Source: Fidelibacterota bacterium (GTDB lineage Bacteria; Fidelibacterota; Marinisomatia; SCGC-AAA003-L08; TS1B11). Taken from it: a stretch of DNA of 22,624 nt. Shown in pieces: positions 10,178-21,327 of this stretch (the first letter of the stretch is position 1; every line of letters begins with the position of its first letter). The position numbers were made by a program, and so were the translations under genes. Below the pieces are notes generated by a model. The model worked only from the letters and a program-made list of their open reading frames with translations. It was not told the DNA's origin and searched no databases. Location of the stretch: contig DAOWIJ010000218.1 in assembly GCA_030640955.1 (NCBI GenBank), positions 1 to 22,624 of the forward strand. The letters are read 5' to 3'.

Positions 10178-10312
10178 GATAACCCCCTGGTCCAGGATGA
10201 AAGCTACAAAGAAAGTCAAAACAGGACCAATTAGCCCCGTTAAATTTAGGCAATTCAAATCAGCCTAGGAAGGGGGAGTGGAGTTCCTGGTGTCGAGTTC
10301 CGGGTTCCTAGT

Positions 10313-10361
10313 ATCCAATATCCAACATCCAATATCCAATATCCAACATCGAGTATCAATC
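10313..10361. repeat. tandem heptanucleotide repeat, copy A: ATCCAAT ATCCAAC ATCCAAT ATCCAAT ATCCAAC ATCGAGT ATCAATC
   Basis: Seven consecutive in-phase 7-mers read directly from the sequence. Intergenic, between the lipoprotein gene 3' end and the CoA-transferase 5' region. Preceded by GAGTTCC direct repeats (10280-10310). Confidence 0.9.
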
Positions 10362-10374
10362 TCCCTGCCATCAC

Positions 10375-11556
10375 TCACTCCATCCGCCTGCCTATGATGA
10401 TGATATCCTTCTGAACTCCCTCGCTGAAATCTTCACCAATAATGACGACCATATCTTTTAACACCGCCACCGAACTGAAATAATAAATAGGATTATTGAA
10501 TTCATTATACTTCTTCCAGGTGGCACCATTGAAGTGCCATATAAGCCCACCTGAACCAACAATAAATATATTATCTCGCCCAGAGCCACGTACTTTGTTC
10601 GGAAATCCCTGCAGTGAAATCTTCAGCGGTTTTGCCTTCCCCTCGCCCCTGATATCCTGCCACCAGATGCCATTGCCTCCTACAACGATGAGGCTGTCCT
10701 CGGTGGCCTGCCACAGGCTGCTGATATGGCCCACATAGCTCTGTGTCGTATCGGAGATCAGATTTGCGTTTTCATCGTAGTACTGGTACCAGTGGGTCTG
10801 CCAGCCGATGCCATCGTTAAGCATGAGCACGCTGCCAGCACCGTCCGTCACCTTGTACCCGCAGGTCCACACATACGAGCCATCGGACGAACCCCACACA
10901 TCTCTCAGATAGACATCCGTGGCTGTGTTCATGGGAGACACATACGAGCCGTTGTATCTAGCGATACCACCGTTATACCCAACAAGATAAAGGATATTAT
11001 CTGAAGGCCCCCACATTTCCCAGACACCCCCAAATCCAAAGTACCTAGGGTGAAAAAAAGTGTAATCTCTCCCATCCCACCGTGTCAGGGATGCGGTATT
11101 TGCGTTGAACCAAATGGTGCTATCGGGCGGAAAGCCGTAAACGGATCTCATATCATCGCTATAAGAGGTATCGATGGTTCCCCCTGGATATAAAGGTGAA
11201 TGTGGGATCCGTCTTAATTCCCATTCATATCCGTTCCAGTGGGCGGTATTGTACTTGCGCCGCCAGGTGGTTGAAGAATCCGCGTGAATGGTATCCGTAT
11301 GCATGATCGCTCCCACTGCCCAGATATCGTCCTCAGAGGCGGCATATACGTCGAAAAGGCGCGAGGTCAACTCACCCAAATGGTATACTTCCCAGACAAA
11401 TTCGTGGCTGGTTGTGTCGGGGCAGCAGATGTCGGGATCATCGGTGCAGGGGTGGTAATACTCGGGGCATACCACCGGGTCGGGTTCCGTGGGGCAGGCG
11501 ACAAACAGACCCAGGGCAAGGAGGGCATACAAGGCAAGTCTTAACGGTGAAACCAT
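10375..11556 (-). CDS. hypothetical lipoprotein with Cys-rich N-terminal segment and beta-propeller-like repeats (Ycf48/BNR-like)
   Basis: Signal peptide plus lipobox (LALGLFVAC). The next 30 residues contain 6 Cys (CPTEPDPVVCPEYYHPCTDDPDICCPDTT). Then a recurring motif of the form hhhVG.NGG.I..W.. occurs about 6 times (LYLVGYNGGIARY, LIVVGGNGIWWQD, IFIVGSGGLIWHF and others). Parts of the gene are markedly AT-rich, for example about 33% GC in line 10441. Confidence 0.6.
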   Translation of the reverse strand: MVSPLRLALYALLALGLFVACPTEPDPVVCPEYYHPCTDDPDICCPDTTSHEFVWEVYHLGELTSRLFDVYAASEDDIWAVGAIMHTDTIHADSSTTWRRKYNTAHWNGYEWELRRIPHSPLYPGGTIDTSYSDDMRSVYGFPPDSTIWFNANTASLTRWDGRDYTFFHPRYFGFGGVWEMWGPSDNILYLVGYNGGIARYNGSYVSPMNTATDVYLRDVWGSSDGSYVWTCGYKVTDGAGSVLMLNDGIGWQTHWYQYYDENANLISDTTQSYVGHISSLWQATEDSLIVVGGNGIWWQDIRGEGKAKPLKISLQGFPNKVRGSGRDNIFIVGSGGLIWHFNGATWKKYNEFNNPIYYFSSVAVLKDMVVIIGEDFSEGVQKDIIIIGRRME

Positions 11557-11810
11557 GGCCCGAATGTACGGGAAAATTGAAAGAGTTGCGAGTATCGAGT
11601 TACCCTGTCATCGCGAGTCCCGACGCTGCGGTAGGGACGTGGCGATCTGCCTACATCCCGGATTGCCACGTCGCTGACGCTCCTCGCAACGACAGGTGTT
11701 GCTCAGTTTACGGCCTGCGAGTTTCGAGATTCGGGGATCAAGCCCCGCCGCCTGTCCCCGACGCTTCGGGTCGGCGGATGACGGGGTCCCCCCGCATTCT
11801 GCGGGGTCCC

Positions 11811-11845
11811 ATCCAATATCCAACATCCAATATCCAGTATCGAGT
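11811..11845. repeat. tandem heptanucleotide repeat, copy B: ATCCAAT ATCCAAC ATCCAAT ATCCAGT ATCGAGT
   Basis: Five in-phase 7-mers, same family and orientation as copy A. Lies immediately 3' of the OsmC gene (minus strand). Preceded by the perfect hairpin CCCCGCA-ttc-TGCGGGG (11790-11806). Confidence 0.9.
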
Positions 11846-11861
11846 CCCCAGCCTCCAGCCT

Positions 11862-12293
11862 CTAGCCCGCTTCCCCCGGCTTGTGCACAATCACTTCGGT
11901 GGTTACCTCGGCAACCTTGTTGAGCATGTTGGTGACGGGGCAGTATTTCTCATCGGTGAGCTGCGCCGCCTTTTTCAGCTTGGCCAGGGGCAGATCGGTG
12001 CCCCAGAAGTGGTACTCGACGTGGATTTTGGTGTAGATGCGAGGCTCCGTTTCAGCTTGTTCGCCCGATATCTTCAGTCGGAAGTCGTCCATTTCCACGC
12101 TCATTTTGCGGAGAATAAGATCGATGTCGATGCCGCTGCAGCCGCCCATGGCGAACAGCACCATTTCCATGGGCTGGGCGGCGCCGTCCTGGCCGTAGTT
12201 TTTGGGCGTGGAGTCCATCACCACCCAGTGGCTGGAGGGGCCTTTCGCCATAAAAGTGCTGCCTTCCAGGCGGCGTACTTCAACTTCAGTCAT
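11862..12293 (-). CDS. OsmC/Ohr family peroxiredoxin
   Basis: 143 aa with AGAGG SD 8 nt upstream. OsmC-family blocks are present (PMEMVLFAMGGCSGIDIDLIL and KYCPVTNML) and both conserved Cys residues. Confidence 0.85.
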   Translation of the reverse strand: MTEVEVRRLEGSTFMAKGPSSHWVVMDSTPKNYGQDGAAQPMEMVLFAMGGCSGIDIDLILRKMSVEMDDFRLKISGEQAETEPRIYTKIHVEYHFWGTDLPLAKLKKAAQLTDEKYCPVTNMLNKVAEVTTEVIVHKPGEAG

Positions 12294-12322
12294 ATTAATA
12301 CCTCTAGATCATTATTGAAATT

Positions 12323-12592
12323 CTACTGGTTGGTGTGGCCGGTATCCCCACCATTTTCGCGGTGGGGTAGCGAGAGCACCTTGTACAGGCGCTCTTCCAC
12401 ATTGCCAGGGAGTTGCTCATCGGTATGTGCCTTGCGGTAGATTGAAACCGTTTTCCTGATGGAGTCGAACTGGGCCCGGCAGTCGGGGCAGCCCTCCAGG
12501 TGCCGCTGGACCTCTTTACAAAGTTCGGCGTCCAGGTCTTCGCCCAGCTGCTCGCAGACGGTGCGCTTGAATTTGTTGTCATGGTTGCTCAT
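12323..12592 (-). CDS. ZAS-type anti-sigma factor (zinc-binding, RsrA-like)
   Basis: 89 aa. H-x3-C-x2-C motif (HLEGCPDC) plus upstream Cys residues. The start overlaps the sigma-factor stop by 4 nt (ATGA) and a GGGAGGG SD lies upstream. Confidence 0.7.
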   Translation of the reverse strand: MSNHDNKFKRTVCEQLGEDLDAELCKEVQRHLEGCPDCRAQFDSIRKTVSIYRKAHTDEQLPGNVEERLYKVLSLPHRENGGDTGHTNQ

Positions 12593-16396: not shown

Positions 16397-16984
16397 TCAT
16401 CTGATGCTTTGGAGTGATGATAAGCATCTCTGGAGACTATCACACACCCTTGAAGCATCCAAAGGGGACCAATGATTTTGGGCAAAATCAGCGATTCGTG
16501 AAGCGTATGCAGGTCCCTCTTTTGCAGTTCCGCCAGGGATTGGTACAATCTCCTCTCTCATATCATAACTGCCAAATCTGCTCACAATACGAATCAATTC
16601 AGCTTTGGGATCTTCTAGATTTTCAGGGTTCAAAGGGAATTTCGATTTTGAGATACGAAAATATTGCGCACACTTGGTGCGATCGCCCAGTATCCACGCT
16701 TCAACTTCTCTTACTACGATTCTAAAATGCATTTTAGGCGCAGGAGAAGGTAATAGTTTATCGTAAAGCTCTGGAGCACACACAGCATCATGATCCAAAT
16801 CCCGAAGTACAAACCAAGGGGCGAACCTTGCGGCGTTATTATAGCCTAGAAGATTCTTATCAAGCTGGTCTTTACCTCTTTTTCTATGAATTACCGCGAT
16901 ACCAAATCCAGCCATATCACAGATTCTTCGTACAACTGCTTCATCAGGATACCCCTCAACAGCAGCGGTGATGAAAGGACGCAT
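16397..16984 (-). CDS. small TOPRIM-like partner protein of the ATPase (resembles DUF4276 family)
   Basis: 195 aa. N-terminal ITAAVEGYPDEAVV (E-G...DE) and downstream LRDLDHD (DxD) form a TOPRIM-like acidic constellation. The ATG at 16982-16984 shares one nt with the ATPase TGA (TGATG). AT-rich. Family assignment is from memory of motif patterns and was not searched. Confidence 0.5.
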   Translation of the reverse strand: MRPFITAAVEGYPDEAVVRRICDMAGFGIAVIHRKRGKDQLDKNLLGYNNAARFAPWFVLRDLDHDAVCAPELYDKLLPSPAPKMHFRIVVREVEAWILGDRTKCAQYFRISKSKFPLNPENLEDPKAELIRIVSRFGSYDMREEIVPIPGGTAKEGPAYASRIADFAQNHWSPLDASRVCDSLQRCLSSLQSIR

Positions 16985-18126
16985 CAATCCCCAAAGAGAG
17001 CAATTTGAGAGGCATTGCTCGGTGATGTTCTCGGAAGCACTGCATCAGCGATAGAAAGGTCACCATTCTCAAGCAGAGCCACAATTTGATCATCGTCTTG
17101 GGCAGTGATAACTCTAGTCCCATCATAACTTGGCAGGAGCAATAGTACTTCATTTGCATCAATGCCCGAATCTTGTAATAAATCCCCCGAATGTGTGCTG
17201 ATAAATACTTGGCGGCCCCTTTTCCGACTTAATCTTGCAAACATTTGTGGCACGTGACGGATTAATTCGGGGTGAAGAGATAATTCTGGTTCTTCTAAAA
17301 GTAGCGGACCCGTCCCTTCAAGCACAGACCATAATAACCCTAGAAGTCTTAGGGTGCCGTCCGAAAATTGATCTTCTGTTTGCCACCCGGCATTTGGTCT
17401 CCAGTGCTCATAAAGACCTTGAATATGAGGGGTTCCTCGATTATCACGGACTAATTCTAAATCTTTAAGCTGGGGTACTGCCACTCGTAACGCGGTTCTT
17501 ATTTTATTTAGTCTGGATTCCAACGTGCTTTTAGGTGTCCTCGCGAGCCTCTCCAGAAAATCGCCACCATAAGGATCATTCACTTTGCCAGTCGAGCGAT
17601 CGGGTTCTCTTACTAATTGAGGGACAATATGGAGATACCTAACAGTGTTGAGAAATTCAGATATTTCCCGGAACTGCTTATTTGCATTTACCTGTTCTAA
17701 GTGCGTTTGCCTGAGACGTTCAGGGTCTGATTCATCCTCTTTGTCAGGTCTTGATAGAATAACTTCTCCAAATCTCTCAACAATTTCTTTTTCAACAACA
17801 GGTTTGCTTGCTCTATCCTGGACTATCTCAAGTCTATAGGTCCAATCTGGGTTTTCGCTATCATTCGCGCCAATATCTATTTCAAGAATAACTTGGGGGG
17901 CTCTCCGCGCAGCCAAACACCGAATCTTTGATACACCATCCCGTTTGTTTACTGCTTGCTGAAGTCCTCCCCCTACTGATGCAATGTCCTGTAAGAAGCG
18001 AAAAGCGTCCAACAAGTTTGATTTTCCGGCGGCATTCGGACCAACAATGAACGCTCTTTTCTGCAGTTTGATCTCAACCTTGCGGAAGTTTCGCCAATTA
18101 CTAAAATTGATTCGTGTAAACCTCAT
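16984..18126 (-). CDS. ABC-like AAA family ATPase (AAA_15/AAA_21 type, OLD/AbiLi/AriA/PtuA-like)
   Basis: Walker A (VGPNAAGKSNLLDAF), Walker B/D-loop (LLLEEPELSLHP) and H-loop (VFISTHSGDLL). I prefer the ATG at 18126 (MRFTRINFSNWRNF, the canonical N-terminus of this ATPase class) over the TTG at 18150 in the ORF track. AT-rich. Confidence 0.8.
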   Translation of the reverse strand: MRFTRINFSNWRNFRKVEIKLQKRAFIVGPNAAGKSNLLDAFRFLQDIASVGGGLQQAVNKRDGVSKIRCLAARRAPQVILEIDIGANDSENPDWTYRLEIVQDRASKPVVEKEIVERFGEVILSRPDKEDESDPERLRQTHLEQVNANKQFREISEFLNTVRYLHIVPQLVREPDRSTGKVNDPYGGDFLERLARTPKSTLESRLNKIRTALRVAVPQLKDLELVRDNRGTPHIQGLYEHWRPNAGWQTEDQFSDGTLRLLGLLWSVLEGTGPLLLEEPELSLHPELIRHVPQMFARLSRKRGRQVFISTHSGDLLQDSGIDANEVLLLLPSYDGTRVITAQDDDQIVALLENGDLSIADAVLPRTSPSNASQIALFGD

Positions 18127-18690
18127 CCTATAATTTCCCAGTATTGGCAATTCTAGAAGTGTGAATATTATTCATATTACAACAAATTACAGTCGATCTC
18201 ATTCTCATAATTTACACAATACATTTATTTCCCAAATACTTTAGATGAGATCGCTCCAAGGCGGAAATTCCTTCCCTCATCTTGTCCCCCAAGTATAATC
18301 CTTACCCGAGCCGATGACCACCAGCCCTAGACAAGCTCAGGATAGGCCCTTCGACTGGCTCAGGCCCGTATCAAATATCCTGCATCAAGACCCGCCTATG
18401 TCGGGATAGACATCGAGCCCTTCGGCAGGCTTGTCCCGCGGAATGCGGGGACGGGCTCAGCGTTCAAAGTTAATAGGGAAAGGTGAGATCAGGTTGGCAA
18501 TATTGCGTGGCGGGCAGGGGCGTTACCTCACCCCCGGACACTGCGTGTCGCCCCCTCTCCTGAAGGCGAGGGGTAAGACCGGAACCCAAGACCAAGGAAT
18601 AACTACATTAATGCAATCCATCCCCGTCAGGCCTGTACTGCGGAACGCGGGGGGATTGGCTGCCTGTACTATGATCCATCGTATAAATAA

Positions 18691-18704
18691 GCAATATATA
18701 TTGC
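18691..18704. promoter_or_regulatory. perfect 14-bp palindrome GCAATATATATTGC in the promoter region of the DUF4143-type ATPase gene
   Basis: Identical to its own reverse complement. It lies about 100 nt upstream of the ATG at 18803 and about 37 nt upstream of a TATAAT hexamer at 18741-18746. Confidence 0.5.
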
Positions 18705-18802
18705 GTTTAACCCATTTTATAGTTATATTAGACTCAGTATAATGATATAACATCGACATAAATATCTAGTAAGATCAATGTATTAAGTTTAATGGAAGTG
18801 AA

Positions 18803-20215
18803 ATGAGAGAGATTACAGCTGGCGAAATTGCGGCGCGTTATCGCTATGATAATCCGTGGTGGAGTTCTCATTCAAATTTACCTTATGCGGACCTGCCTGG
18901 GCGGGCATACCTGCCGCAATTCTACAAGTATATTTCAATGCCTGATCCCAACAGGGCTGTTGTGCTAATGGGTCCACGGAGGGTCGGTAAAACAGTACTG
19001 ATTCATCATGCCATATACGAACTGATCGATAATGGGGTTCCAGCCAATAATATACTCTATGTATCTGTTGACGCTCCTGTATTTACTGGCACGCCTCTGG
19101 AGCATCATGTTAAGAACTTCATTGATATCATACAGCAGCCAGGTAGTGAAAGACTTATTATTTTCCTTGATGAGGTGCAGTACCTGGCAAACTGGGAAGT
19201 GCATCTCAAGAGCCTGGTAGATACCTATCCCAATTATAAGTTTATAGTTTCGGGTTCTGCCGCGGCTGCTCTCAGATTCAAGAGTATCGAATCAGGTGCG
19301 GGCCGTTTTACAGACTTTATGCTGCCACCACTTACATTTGCAGAATACCTTGGTTTTATTGAAATAGAGAAAGACCTGATCAAGGCTGATTCTGAGAATC
19401 AACGCAACTATATAGCGCTGGATATCGGTGAACTAAATCGGCATTTTATCAACTACCTTAATTTCGGTGGATATCCTGAGGCGGTTTTTTCCGAGCAGAT
19501 AAAGGCAGACCCAGCAAGATTTATCAAGAGTGACATTATAGACAAAGTTCTCCTACGGGATTTGCCAGGTTTATACGGTATCAGAGATATCCAGGAACTC
19601 AACCGTTTATTCACCAATATTGCCTACAACACTGGTGAAGAGATCAGCCTCGAAGATTTATCCCAGAAGTCAGGCGTCCAAAAGAATACGATTGTGAAAT
19701 ACCTGGAATATCAGGAATCAGCATTTCTGATCAAAAGAATCAGGAAAGTGACACTGGCGGGGCAGAGATTTAAACGCGATCGCCATTTTAAGGTATACTT
19801 AACAAATCCGTCTATGAGAGCGGCCCTGTTTGGTCCAGTACAGATCGACTCAGAGGATATGGGAAAACTGGCAGAGACGGCGGTATTCGCGCAGTGGCTT
19901 CATGATAAAACGTATATTGAGAGCATCTATTATGGCCGTTGGAAGGAAGCCGAAGTTGATGTAATAGGTATTATCGAAGGCTCGCCTCGCACTATCTGGG
20001 CTGTTGAGATAAAGTGGAGTGATAAATCCTACTCCAATCCAAGTAGGATCAAAGGGATAATCGACTACTCCAAGAAACATTCGCTTAGTAGAAAACCAGT
20101 GGTAACAACACGTACCATTAGAGGAGAACTCATCGTGTCTGGAGTTCCAATAGAATTTTGTCCAACCAGCCTGCATTGCTATACGATTGGTAAAAATCTG
20201 ATCCAGAACAAGTGA
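18803..20215 (+). CDS. AAA_14 / DUF4143-type ATP-binding protein
   Basis: 470 aa. Walker A (LMGPRRVGKTVL) and Walker B (LIIFLDEVQYL). Length and N-terminal organisation are typical of the widespread AAA_14+DUF4143 ATP-binding protein family. AT-rich, about 43% GC in a sampled line. Confidence 0.75.
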   Translation: MREITAGEIAARYRYDNPWWSSHSNLPYADLPGRAYLPQFYKYISMPDPNRAVVLMGPRRVGKTVLIHHAIYELIDNGVPANNILYVSVDAPVFTGTPLEHHVKNFIDIIQQPGSERLIIFLDEVQYLANWEVHLKSLVDTYPNYKFIVSGSAAAALRFKSIESGAGRFTDFMLPPLTFAEYLGFIEIEKDLIKADSENQRNYIALDIGELNRHFINYLNFGGYPEAVFSEQIKADPARFIKSDIIDKVLLRDLPGLYGIRDIQELNRLFTNIAYNTGEEISLEDLSQKSGVQKNTIVKYLEYQESAFLIKRIRKVTLAGQRFKRDRHFKVYLTNPSMRAALFGPVQIDSEDMGKLAETAVFAQWLHDKTYIESIYYGRWKEAEVDVIGIIEGSPRTIWAVEIKWSDKSYSNPSRIKGIIDYSKKHSLSRKPVVTTRTIRGELIVSGVPIEFCPTSLHCYTIGKNLIQNK

Positions 20216-20308: not shown

Positions 20309-20337
20309 AAAAAACCGCCCCCATCTCTGAGGGCGGT
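20309..20337 (-). terminator. rho-independent terminator (minus strand)
   Basis: ACCGCCC-ccatctctga-GGGCGGT gives a 7-bp GC stem. On the minus strand it is followed by a 6-nt U run (A6 at 20309-20314 on plus). It lies downstream of the SPFH gene and repeat copy C. Confidence 0.7.
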
Positions 20338-20338
20338 C

Positions 20339-20421
20339 ATCCAATATCTAATATCCAATATCCTGCTTCATCCCCACCAATGGCGGGCTAAACATCTAGT
20401 ATCGAGTATCGAGCATCCAGA
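20339..20421. repeat. tandem heptanucleotide repeat, copy C (split): ATCCAAT ATCTAAT ATCCAAT ATCCTGC ... ATCTAGT ATCGAGT ATCGAGC ATCCAGA
   Basis: Same 7-mer family as copies A and B, interrupted by a 27-nt spacer (ttcatccccaccaatggcgggctaaac). Lies between the convergent SPFH gene and DUF4143-type gene ends. Confidence 0.85.
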
Positions 20422-20424
20422 CCG

Positions 20425-21327
20425 CTAGTTCACGCCTCCCAGGATAATCGGCAGGCCGTCTTTGCCTGAGCCGATCACCACTACCTTGGCATTGTTGCTG
20501 CCGGCCAGGGCGTTGGTGGCCTCGATCCCCTTCCAACGCAGGAAGTTATCCGATATCCCTTCGGCCACCGTCTTATTGAAATCCCGGATGCCCTCGGCTT
20601 CGATCCGTTTACGGGCCGCCTCCTTCTGCTCCTTCACCAGGACGAACTCCATGCGCTGGCTCTCCTGCTCGGCGCGCAATTTCTCCTCGATGGCGGCTGC
20701 CAGGTCCTGAGGCAGGATCACGTCGCGAAGCGGAGTGGACTCTATCGCAATTCCCCGTTCGGAAACAGCTTCGGCTAGTTTGGCCGAGATGGCAGCGGCC
20801 ACCTCATCGCGCTTGGAGGCGTACACCGCTTTGGCTTCAAATTTGGCGGTCACATCCCGGACCACCGAGCGGAAATTGGGCAGCAATACCTTGCGGATGA
20901 GATCTTCCTCCAGGCCGACAGTCCGTACTATCTCAGGGGCGACCGACGGTTCCAAATGGTAGATCACGCTGATCTCCAGGCCCACGGTAAGGTTCTCCTT
21001 GGAGGGAGCCCGCATCTCCTCCCGGCGCTCCTGGGTCTTGATGTTCATTTTAATGATATCAGCGAAGGGATTACGCACATTTACCCCTTCACGCAACACC
21101 CGGCTGTCAACCTTGCCGAAGACCTTGATCACGCCCACGGTGCCGGCGTCAATGATGGTGATCAACTGGAAGGCTGCCATCAGCAGGGCGATGAACGCTA
21201 TTCCCTGGAGCAGACCCGGACCCAAGCCCATCTGCTTCAGATTACTTGACAGCACCGACGATCGCTTGACATAAACGGACAGGAAGAGCACGACTACCGC
21301 GATGACGGCAAAAAGTAAAAAACGCAT
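20425..21327 (-). CDS. SPFH/band-7 (prohibitin/HflC-like) membrane protein
   Basis: 300 aa. N-terminal TM helix, then an SPFH core (GTVGVIKVFGKVD...NVRNPF) and a C-terminal coiled-coil rich in EAEQ. AAGGAG SD 8 nt upstream. Confidence 0.8.
   Translation of the reverse strand: MRFLLFAVIAVVVLFLSVYVKRSSVLSSNLKQMGLGPGLLQGIAFIALLMAAFQLITIIDAGTVGVIKVFGKVDSRVLREGVNVRNPFADIIKMNIKTQERREEMRAPSKENLTVGLEISVIYHLEPSVAPEIVRTVGLEEDLIRKVLLPNFRSVVRDVTAKFEAKAVYASKRDEVAAAISAKLAEAVSERGIAIESTPLRDVILPQDLAAAIEEKLRAEQESQRMEFVLVKEQKEAARKRIEAEGIRDFNKTVAEGISDNFLRWKGIEATNALAGSNNAKVVVIGSGKDGLPIILGGVN

Follow-up and report, generated by a model that had tools for sequence, protein, structure and literature searches.

Heptanucleotides are the most abundant class of long simple sequence repeats (SSRs), i.e. 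those with units of 5–11 bp, in many bacteria, and polymerase slippage was suggested as their origin, as the survey is summarized in later papers (Mrazek, Guo and Shah 2007, via PMC4679880 and PMC4692102). In marine Beggiatoaceae, Cyanobacteria, and Bacteroidetes, numerous intergenic sites carry 2–43 repeats of the heptamer TAACTGA, for which CsrA, Csp, and S1 have been put forward as readers (MacGregor 2015, PMC4679880). One preprint describes modest regulatory effects of heptamer repeats in Nostoc. Here, we analysed a stretch of 22,624 nt from a Fidelibacterota bacterium (Candidatus Marinimicrobia; assembly GCA_030640955.1, contig DAOWIJ010000218.1, positions 1 to 22,624, forward strand), hereafter called the window, which contains tracts of tandem heptamers of the family ATC[C/G]A[A/G][C/T] (ATCSARY) at three loci, A, B, and C. 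A preceding sequence-only reading had held that they match no standard feature class, which is wrong, because SSRs with heptanucleotide units have already been described as a class (PMC4679880, PMC4692102). The tracts are heptanucleotide SSRs fused to mini hairpins that resemble repetitive extragenic palindromic (REP) elements, and they are probably born, grow, and decay by slippage in slack 3′ intergenic DNA.

The heptamers are in phase at 10278–10364, 11811–11866, and 20339–20421, and form the following arrays:

10278–10364, plus strand: locus A array, 12 in-phase heptamers (GTGGAGT TCCTGGT GTCGAGT TCCGGGT TCCTAGT, five ATCCAAY, ATCGAGT, ATCAATC)
11811–11866, plus strand: locus B array, 8 in-phase heptamers (ATCCAAT ATCCAAC ATCCAAT ATCCAGT ATCGAGT CCCCAGC CTCCAGC CTCTAGC)
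20339–20366, plus strand: locus C distal array (ATCCAAT ATCTAAT ATCCAAT ATCCTGC), directly abutting a terminator stem
20394–20421, plus strand: locus C stop-proximal array (ATCTAGT ATCGAGT ATCGAGC ATCCAGA), 3 nt from the stop codon of the SPFH gene (20425–20427)

The two arrays of locus C are out of phase with each other and are split by a small hairpin (20372–20388). Tandem Repeats Finder detected period-7 arrays at 10312–10350 (5.6 copies), 11811–11841 (4.4 copies), 20339–20363 (3.6 copies), and 20394–20417 (ATCGAGT, 3.4 copies). Head-to-tail 7-bp units with at least three copies above chance, which define prokaryotic heptanucleotide SSRs, are thus present at four arrays. The pattern ATCCAAYATCCAAY, i.e. 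(ATCCAAY)2 with up to two mismatches, has 11 matches in the window, all on the plus strand, versus 0.60 expected, and 0 of 100 shuffles gave 11 matches. Sliding autocorrelation over the whole window yielded high-identity windows at lags 7 and 14 only, and at loci A and B only. Tandem Repeats Finder, pattern count, and autocorrelation agree, and three in-phase loci running from ATCCAAY to ATCGAGT were found where the sequence-only reading had placed them. The GAGTTCC repeats that it had described as adjacent to the ATCCAAY array at locus A are also present, but they are not a separate element: they are in register with, and part of, the same array, which contains the 14-mer super-unit GTSGAGT-TCCKGGT.

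All three tracts lie directly downstream of minus-strand genes and have one orientation, as had been noted before. They start 10 nt after the stop codon of a gene for a 393-aa lipoprotein-like protein (locus A), at 0 nt from or overlapping that of OsmC (locus B), and 3 nt after that of an SPFH/Band_7 protein (locus C). The stop codon of OsmC (CTA, 11862–11864) is located inside the last unit of locus B. Locus A is flanked on one side by the stop codon of the 393-aa gene (10375–10377), and ends on the other side at a conserved region upstream of an acetyl-CoA hydrolase gene, which is kept upstream of that gene in a relative. Read along the mRNA, the three loci share one order, i.e. stop codon, ACUCGAU-type units, and RUUGGAU units; a GC hairpin follows at loci B and C, and locus A has none. 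All window arrays are intergenic, in agreement with the non-coding position of the SSR class. A coding role was rejected, because the arrays come after stop codons and the 7-nt unit is out of frame.

For comparison, arrays were collected with a genome scan for (ATCCAAY)3, using one genome per species, and with a metagenome scan for the junction ATCCAAY-ATCCARY-ATCSAGT. The results of both scans, and all counts over comparison loci (L numbers) given below, refer to the matches listed. The array at locus B abuts a hairpin, and further small hairpins and a terminator are found in the window:

11790–11810: GC hairpin CCCCGCATTCTGCGGGG (11790–11806; CCCCGCAGAAUGCGGGG on the mRNA strand) with the tail TCCC, directly abutting array B
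18434–18450: inverted copy of the locus B hairpin, TCCCGCGGAATGCGGGG
20372–20388: mini hairpin of the CCCACC-AAT-GGCGGG type, interrupting locus C
20309–20338, minus strand: intrinsic terminator of the SPFH gene, GACCGCCCTCAGAGATGGGGGCGGTT plus T tract (11-bp stem plus TTTTTT)

The array starts right after the 3′ half of the hairpin, and the boundary reads GGCGGG-ATTCC/ATCC or GCGGGG-TCCC/ATCC. This boundary is present at window locus B and in L009, L216, L224, L227 (twice), L238 (twice), L249, L277, and L331, and the polarity from hairpin to array is fixed at every locus that has it. The earlier idea of a genus-specific REP-like element fits in the form of a lineage-specific one, as arrays begin directly behind the conserved hairpin tail wherever the boundary motif occurs. 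A general rule placing a hairpin on the ATCCAAY side was rejected, because the folding energies of left and right flanks did not differ over 243 arrays; the rule is valid solely for the Marinimicrobia-type GGCGGGATTCC boundary.

Hairpins of the CCCGCC-GYT-GGCGGG family were found in L227, L238, L277, L331, L216, L224, and L249, and some copies are nested. The mini hairpin of locus C is homologous both to an element at 18391–18405 and to GTTTAGCCCGCCAT, which L331 carries 3′ of its SPFH gene. Like REP/REPIN-type sequences, these short GC-rich palindromes are dispersed between genes in both orientations, e.g. the inverted copies at 11790 and 18434, which points to a family of tiny elements, either mobile or REP-like. 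Dispersed small hairpins of the types CCCCGC-N5-GCGGGG and CCCGCC-GYT-GGCGGG were also observed in both orientations and as hairpin-in-hairpin arrangements (L238 1467–1559; L331 2460–2570). Centroid structures predict that the arrays are unpaired on both strands, and that the hairpins and the terminator alone fold. An intrinsic terminator is present at locus C alone, and the heptamer arrays themselves do not constitute one. The window arrays had no match in Rfam, either at the gathering score or at E ≤ 1.

Whole-unit differences were observed between related loci. Pairs of loci were identified by the similarity of their flanks. In all eight pairs whose flanks are 100% identical, the arrays are identical, too. 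The pair L283/L323 (flanks 99.2% identical) has 11 versus 6 units, and the pair L292/L322 (flanks ~96% identical) has 6 versus 4 units. The 3′ regions of SPFH orthologues are arranged as follows:

Window, SPFH 100% (reference): 88 nt of arrays and mini hairpin, then the same terminator as in L332 and L333, GACCGCCCTCAGAGATGGGGGCGG-T6
L331, SPFH 82% identity: GTTTAGCCCGCCAT in common with the window, other unit numbers, extra hairpin
L329, SPFH 81% identity: another arrangement, including a 21-nt GCCCTGAGCTTGTCGAAGGGC insert inside a unit
L332 and L333, SPFH 78% amino acid identity: stop codon, 32 nt, terminator GGGCCTCCAGAGATGGGGGCCC-T6, no array
L334, SPFH 69% identity: 11-nt gap after the stop codon, no array

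The terminator is kept in the orthologues without arrays (L332 and L333). This series indicates that the arrays are a lineage-specific, dispensable, and fast-remodelled insert between the stop codon and a conserved terminator. The distant Marinimicrobia contigs L206–L208, which were reached via the 393-aa protein, contain no comparable arrays, and the trait is therefore not phylum-wide. The whole-unit differences between orthologous loci and the fast turnover at the SPFH 3′ end fit the earlier suggestion of slipped-strand-prone minisatellites. The comparison of unit numbers across strains, which had been proposed as a check, had a divided outcome: counts differ between related loci, but the window loci are invariant in two near-identical assemblies.

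These results can be combined into one mechanism. Slipped-strand mispairing of whole units would create the arrays and change their length, and units carrying point mutations would themselves be amplified, giving rise to blocks of ATCCAAY, ATCCAGY, ATCGAGY, and CYCYAGC and to 14-mer super-units. The arrays of this lineage may have been seeded or anchored beside small dispersed GC-rich REP-like hairpins, the tail of which, ATTCC or TCCC, is continued directly by the first ATCC unit. Within the window, the arrays would have grown to fill spare sequence that separates a stop codon from the hairpin or terminator downstream of it. Due to this position they would be transcribed as 3′-UTR (untranslated region) filler reading (RYUSGAU)n, and they would be nearly neutral, i.e. 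without a sequence-specific function. The periodicities of 7 and 14 only, far above chance, the predicted lack of structure, and the empty Rfam result are in agreement with slippage.

The distribution of the unit over phyla points in the same direction. (ATCCAAY)3 was found in Verrucomicrobiota, Bacteroidota, Chloroflexota, Acidobacteriota, Patescibacteria, Planctomycetota, a spirochaete, and others. The flanks of these matches contain neighbouring arrays of many other heptamers, often as inverted arrays that form long hairpins. Among the 838 tandem-repeat clusters in the array-bearing loci of many phyla (873 kb in total), 385 have a period of 7, in comparison to 56 with a period of 6 and 69 with a period of 8, and the period-7 clusters represent 160 distinct units. 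Viral contigs contain 34 stretches of ATCCAAY versus 24 and 25 stretches of two composition-matched permuted heptamers, and the difference is not significant. The view that the cross-phylum matches form a homologous family was rejected, because in viral contigs the permuted controls reach almost the same frequency; the matches are a generic heptanucleotide-SSR phenomenon. The metagenome arrays comprise up to at least 30 units of ATCCAGT, ATCCAGC, ATCGAGC, and ATCCAAY. An invariant core within the unit was likewise rejected: the variable positions depend on the seed pattern used, as expected for drift and not for a fixed binding core. Arrays possibly within an open reading frame (ORF) account for 11 of 133 and 6 of 123 comparison arrays.

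Two groups of cross-phylum arrays have arrangements of their own. Candidatus Haliotispira prima (NZ_CP123443.1; L011, L038, L070, and L094) carries (ATCCAAT)4–5 directly after promoter-like boxes, TTGACT-N17-TATAAT, within a gene family that is repeated about every 1.3 kb, which would place the start of the heptamers at or close to the transcription start in this spirochaete. Acidobacteriota and Verrucomicrobiota contain inverted arrays of the form GGGAAAC(ATCCAAC)n-loop-(GTTGGAT)nGTTTCCC (L002 43–117, L020 2575–2663, L105 1507–1600, L047, L221, and L291), which form long near-perfect hairpins, whereas the window arrays have a single orientation.

Several observations weigh against slippage in neutral DNA. 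The window arrays have no indel relative to the two near-identical assemblies (99.9% and 98.7% identity), and so we infer slippage at these exact loci from the relatives. Arrays are retained at the SPFH 3′ position in three lineages down to ~81% protein identity, which is long for purely neutral bacterial DNA. The preference for 7 bp is left without a cause. Furthermore, in 13 of 32 cases of the metagenome set a gene on the opposite strand has its stop codon at most 10 nt from the AGY end, versus 3 of 32 in the other orientation (p=0.008), with the genes of all 240 comparison loci having been predicted by a home-made, composition-based caller that was validated on the window alone, where it reproduces the known genes. 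This bias hints at polarity or constraint, which neutral slippage does not obviously predict, and the one-directional search pattern may have contributed to it.

The same bias could be explained, together with the fixed hairpin polarity and the direct-repeat arrays around a lineage-specific gene, if hairpin and heptamers were a functional or self-propagating module common to many uncultured phyla. It would be either a mini mobile element, the tail of which is extended in 7-nt steps by a dedicated mechanism, or a 3′-end module that is read in heptad register by a protein setting termination or decay. We regard such a module as quite improbable; if true, it would be the first mechanistic handle on the favoured 7-bp repeat unit of bacteria.

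The hairpins raise the related question of whether hairpin and heptamer tail replicate together. Such a composite miniature mobile element, similar to REP/REPIN or to the cyanobacterial small dispersed repeats (SDRs), would have spread to intergenic sites, and the layout from ATCCAAY to ATCGAGT would reflect common descent of the copies instead of independent slippage, which on balance we consider unlikely. The fixed order of hairpin, tail, and array at the boundary motif, the nested hairpins in both orientations (L238 and L331), and the hairpins inserted within the arrays of L227, L277, L329, and L331 would be expected of such an element. No conserved ends or target-site duplications can be defined, however, the flanks of the three loci are dissimilar as far as the array edge, locus A lacks a hairpin, and the gene scan of the window revealed neither a transposase nor a RAYT. 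Mobility of the hairpin alone would also leave the heptamer periodicity unexplained. One further copy bears on this question:

18370–18418, plus strand: decayed fourth copy, ATCAAAT ATCCTGC ATCAAGA CCCGCCTATGTCGGG ATAGAC ATCGAGC

It is identical to the interior of locus C at 37 of 49 positions, as common descent would predict, but the core similarity score of 11 is only modestly above that of shuffled sequences (mean 5.4, maximum 13).

Gene order provides evidence of the same kind. The 393-aa gene (10375–11556), with a best homologue of at most 33% identity, is absent from the syntenic relatives L329 and L333, and near-identical direct-repeat arrays (ATCCAAT ATCCAAC ATCCAAT to ATCGAGT; 10313–10354 and 11811–11845) are found on both sides of it. 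In the window, 4 of 4 array-bearing spacers of more than 100 nt coincide with synteny breakpoints, versus 0 of 4 array-free spacers. The arrays may be markers or mediators of rearrangement junctions, and both observations would suit a composite element. In contrast, the arrays of locus C lie inside the conserved interval between stop codon and terminator and were not brought in with foreign DNA.

The orientation of the arrays relative to the genes is not fixed. The neighbouring genes of the relatives' arrays were verified with Pfam. The layout of the window, with an mRNA reading RYUSGAU and an array that abuts or overlaps the stop codon, is also found in L238 (an NtrC-like gene) and in L277 (glnA, with the stop codon inside the unit ATCTAGC). 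It recurs at the atpH stop codon in L222, where the entire atpH-atpA spacer is built of heptamers, and L009 has the same orientation 75 nt past a stop codon. The opposite orientation occurs twice each in L216 (a window-related contig, the SPFH protein of which is 77% identical to that of the window) and L227, at 55–96 nt past a stop codon, in L256 in a 5′-UTR just ahead of a Shine-Dalgarno sequence, and in L331 at 2431–2587, overlapping the stop codon of a SpoU gene. For co-directional contexts, the C-rich strand is sense in 50 versus 29 cases in the genome set and in 30 versus 24 cases in the metagenome set, i.e. 80 versus 53 when pooled over the 240 loci (p=0.02). The fixed orientation therefore fails in relatives and across phyla, an outcome that the sequence-only reading had itself named as counting against a GGA/CsrA role of the repeats.

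That role is part of a wider proposal, according to which an RNA-binding protein is titrated or recruited by a transcribed (RYUGGAU)n array in the 3′-UTR, with a tuning effect on termination, on mRNA decay, or on how the next gene is translated; candidate readers would be CsrA/RsmA via GGA, or a protein with a 7-nt footprint, e.g. a cold-shock domain protein or a HutP-like oligomer. We assign a low probability to it. The count of about 9 GGA motifs in about 100 nt on the minus strand of locus A is correct and compares with a window background of 1.74 per 100 nt. The repeat of CsrB is CAGGAUG, which the unit UUGGAUG resembles. Transcription is expected from the position between stop codon and terminator, the mRNA contains the GGA strand in all 4 of the Marinimicrobia-type cases studied first (L009 and the window loci A, B, and C), the L222 operon spacer consists wholly of RYTGGAT heptamers, and adjacency to stop codons is enriched in the GGA orientation (13/32 versus 3/32). 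S1, Csp, or CsrA have moreover been proposed as readers for TAACTGA heptamers (MacGregor 2015, PMC4679880).

On the other hand, the GGA-strand transcript is not consistent: L216 (twice), L227 (twice), L256, and L331 (2431–2587) have the GGA-free orientation, and the pooled contexts favour the C-rich sense (80 versus 53). CsrA target arrays present GGA in hairpin loops or in an A(N)GGA context, and this was not found here, as the arrays are predicted to be unpaired and GGA lies outside of loops. The 7-nt spacing of GGA is also below the at least 10 nt that are bridged by a CsrA dimer. No similarity to CsrB/Rsm-like small RNAs was detected in Rfam at the gathering score or at E ≤ 1, no CsrA is encoded among the scanned genes of the 22.6-kb window, and the literature search found no paper linking Marinimicrobia with CsrA. 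The unit sequence drifts at every position, and orthologous 3′-UTRs lack the arrays. CsrA/RsmA-type GGA arrays are therefore not supported.

A signal at the level of DNA or transcription would not depend on the GGA strand. Either the duplex heptads would be bound by a protein, as are the 7-bp heptads of omega/RHH (ribbon-helix-helix) repressors, or the C-rich, G-free (AUCCAAY)n would serve as a rut-like tract for the loading of Rho onto antisense or read-through transcripts that enter the 3′ ends of minus-strand genes. Both versions appear highly improbable to us. The 7-bp units are contiguous and without spacers, their ATCCAAY strand consists of 0% G and ~43% C, with no pairing predicted anywhere along it, and over the phyla there is a mild preference for the C-rich strand as sense (80 versus 53). 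At locus C, in addition, read-through from the convergent AAA_14 gene would run into the tract, which is situated just past the terminator stem. These points are opposed by the location of the tracts. They are found at gene 3′ ends, where they abut stop codons and terminators, and none lies at a promoter, an origin, or a partition locus; the scanned neighbours include no RHH, Rep, or Par gene. The iteron-like DNA-binding sites that had been suggested thus have no positional support. Moreover, the unit sequence is not conserved, the arrays are absent in orthologues, and the spacing of YC dinucleotides inferred for Rho primary sites is not 7 nt.

The analysis of neighbouring genes was affected by the repeats themselves. 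Heptamer arrays have no stop codons in all frames, and their G-rich strand supplies ATG, GTG, and TTG, so that inflated or spurious ORF calls are to be expected. Naive longest-ORF calling was dropped as unreliable, because arrays extend ORFs, and the composition-based caller was used instead. One shadow ORF of 342 aa (11412–12440, plus strand), opposite to the OsmC and anti-sigma genes, is preferred by longest-ORF calling.

The genes around the tracts encode acetyl-CoA hydrolase, the 393-aa protein, OsmC, an extracytoplasmic function (ECF) sigma factor with its anti-sigma factor, and an SPFH/prohibitin protein, and a low-GC block carries AAA_21 and AAA_14/DUF4143 ATPases. The 393-aa protein has a lipobox-like N-terminus (LFVAC) and no match in Pfam or NCBIfam. 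The tRNA/tmRNA scan detected neither in the window. Two smaller arrays were also found:

11583–11601, plus strand, like the main arrays: mini-array with units of the form xxxGAGT (TGCGAGT ATCGAGT and others), immediately upstream of the start of the 393-aa gene
11718–11745: mini-array

The segment 10205–10245 (minus strand, AACGGGGCTAATTGGTCCTGTTTTGAC), upstream of the acetyl-CoA hydrolase gene, has a terminator-like score and is kept in L329 as TAATTTAAGAGGACTGATTTGTCCTGTTTTGGG; it may be a conserved leader or an attenuator-type element. Between the anti-sigma and acetyl-CoA hydrolase genes, L329 (8530–8600) contains an apparent remnant of the OsmC N-terminus (ATGACTGAGGTCGAAGTTCGCC), which suggests gene decay or deletion at the site that is occupied in the window by OsmC, array B, and the lipoprotein gene.

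The interval between SPFH and DUF503 (window 16397–20215) has different cargo in every relative. The window contains the low-GC block (0.43–0.46) with an AAA_21/AbiEii-like ATPase, a 195-aa ORF, and an AAA_14+DUF4143 ATPase, L329 (1052–3369) has AAA_21 and a 197-aa ORF, L331 (7446–10401) has SLFN_AlbA_2/HATPase_c_4 and CbiA, L333 (1758–6274) has a dCMP/MafB19-type deaminase and others, and L334 (10901–10913) has an 11-nt gap and no cargo. The interval looks like a variable island hotspot, possibly related to defence. Its 652-nt spacer (18151–18802) resembles a graveyard of fragments, some of which are common to L009 (GGGATAGACATYGAGC and GAGCCCTTCGGC), and includes at 18330–18366 an element of ~21 nt resembling GCCCTTCGACAAGCTCAGGGC, which in L329 (1070–1092) sits inside a heptamer unit.

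Candidatus Marinimicrobia and the new unit family ATCSARY are added to the bacteria with abundant heptanucleotide microsatellites, and the literature search found no paper mentioning ATCCAAC or GTTGGAT repeats. The SPFH 3′ region offers a concrete case of tract birth and turnover, with an insertion between stop codon and conserved terminator and with unit number and hairpin content varying among relatives. For metagenome-assembled genomes, heptamer tracts are likely sites of assembly breaks and recombination.

How do the window tracts compare with known systems? They share with the CsrB/RsmZ arrays a dense series of GGA and a unit, UUGGAUG, near CAGGAUG, but they differ in that GGA is outside of stem-loops, the spacing is strictly 7 nt, orientation is not kept, Rfam has no match, and the arrays are dispensable in orthologues. 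The hairpins are similar to REP/REPIN elements, i.e. dispersed GC-rich hairpins of 15–25 nt that are intergenic, occur in both orientations and nested, and are often located near gene 3′ ends (Bertels and Rainey 2011, PMC3116915). Unlike in those systems, neither a RAYT transposase nor a REP doublet was demonstrated here, and REPs are not normally fused to heptamer arrays. The small dispersed repeats reported from cyanobacteria by Elhai et al. in 2008 resemble the window hairpins in the same respects.

Closer parallels are found among heptamer repeats. Like the TAACTGA repeats, the window family consists of one heptamer at many intergenic sites in distant phyla, with a mechanism of spread that is unexplained; TAACTGA is, however, mostly forward and just upstream of start codons, whereas the window arrays are just downstream of stop codons and their orientation is variable among relatives (PMC4679880). 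The GGGAATC/GGGGAYT repeats of Xanthomonas and Nostoc also form intergenic arrays, sometimes as inverted pairs, and vary in length and sequence at one site between close relatives (Rehm et al. 2015, PMC4692102). They have runs of three to four G and are capable of forming G-quadruplexes, in contrast to RYTGGAT, which has GG only and would form at best a weak two-tetrad structure. A G-quadruplex reading was rejected, as at least four runs of at least three G are required and the units carry GG only.

The units of the cyanobacterial short tandemly repeated repetitive (STRR) sequences are CCCCAGT, TTGGTCA, and CAACAGT. STRR is a cyanobacterial term in the strict sense, and the window tracts, with ATCSARY units and a host from Candidatus Marinimicrobia, were not assigned to it. 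Nevertheless, both are dispersed intergenic families of tandem heptamers with few favoured units per genome, as far as STRR sequences are recounted in a later paper (Mazel et al. 1990, via PMC4692102). The survey of long SSRs with units of 5–11 bp did not cover Marinimicrobia, and the attachment of GC hairpins and the abutment of stop codons were not found in the accounts of it in later papers. According to the same accounts, the long SSRs of that class and the window tracts have in common head-to-tail 7-bp units, a mostly intergenic position, a sporadic distribution across phyla, genome-specific units, whole-unit variation (for the window's unit family, at related and metagenome loci), and no assigned function.

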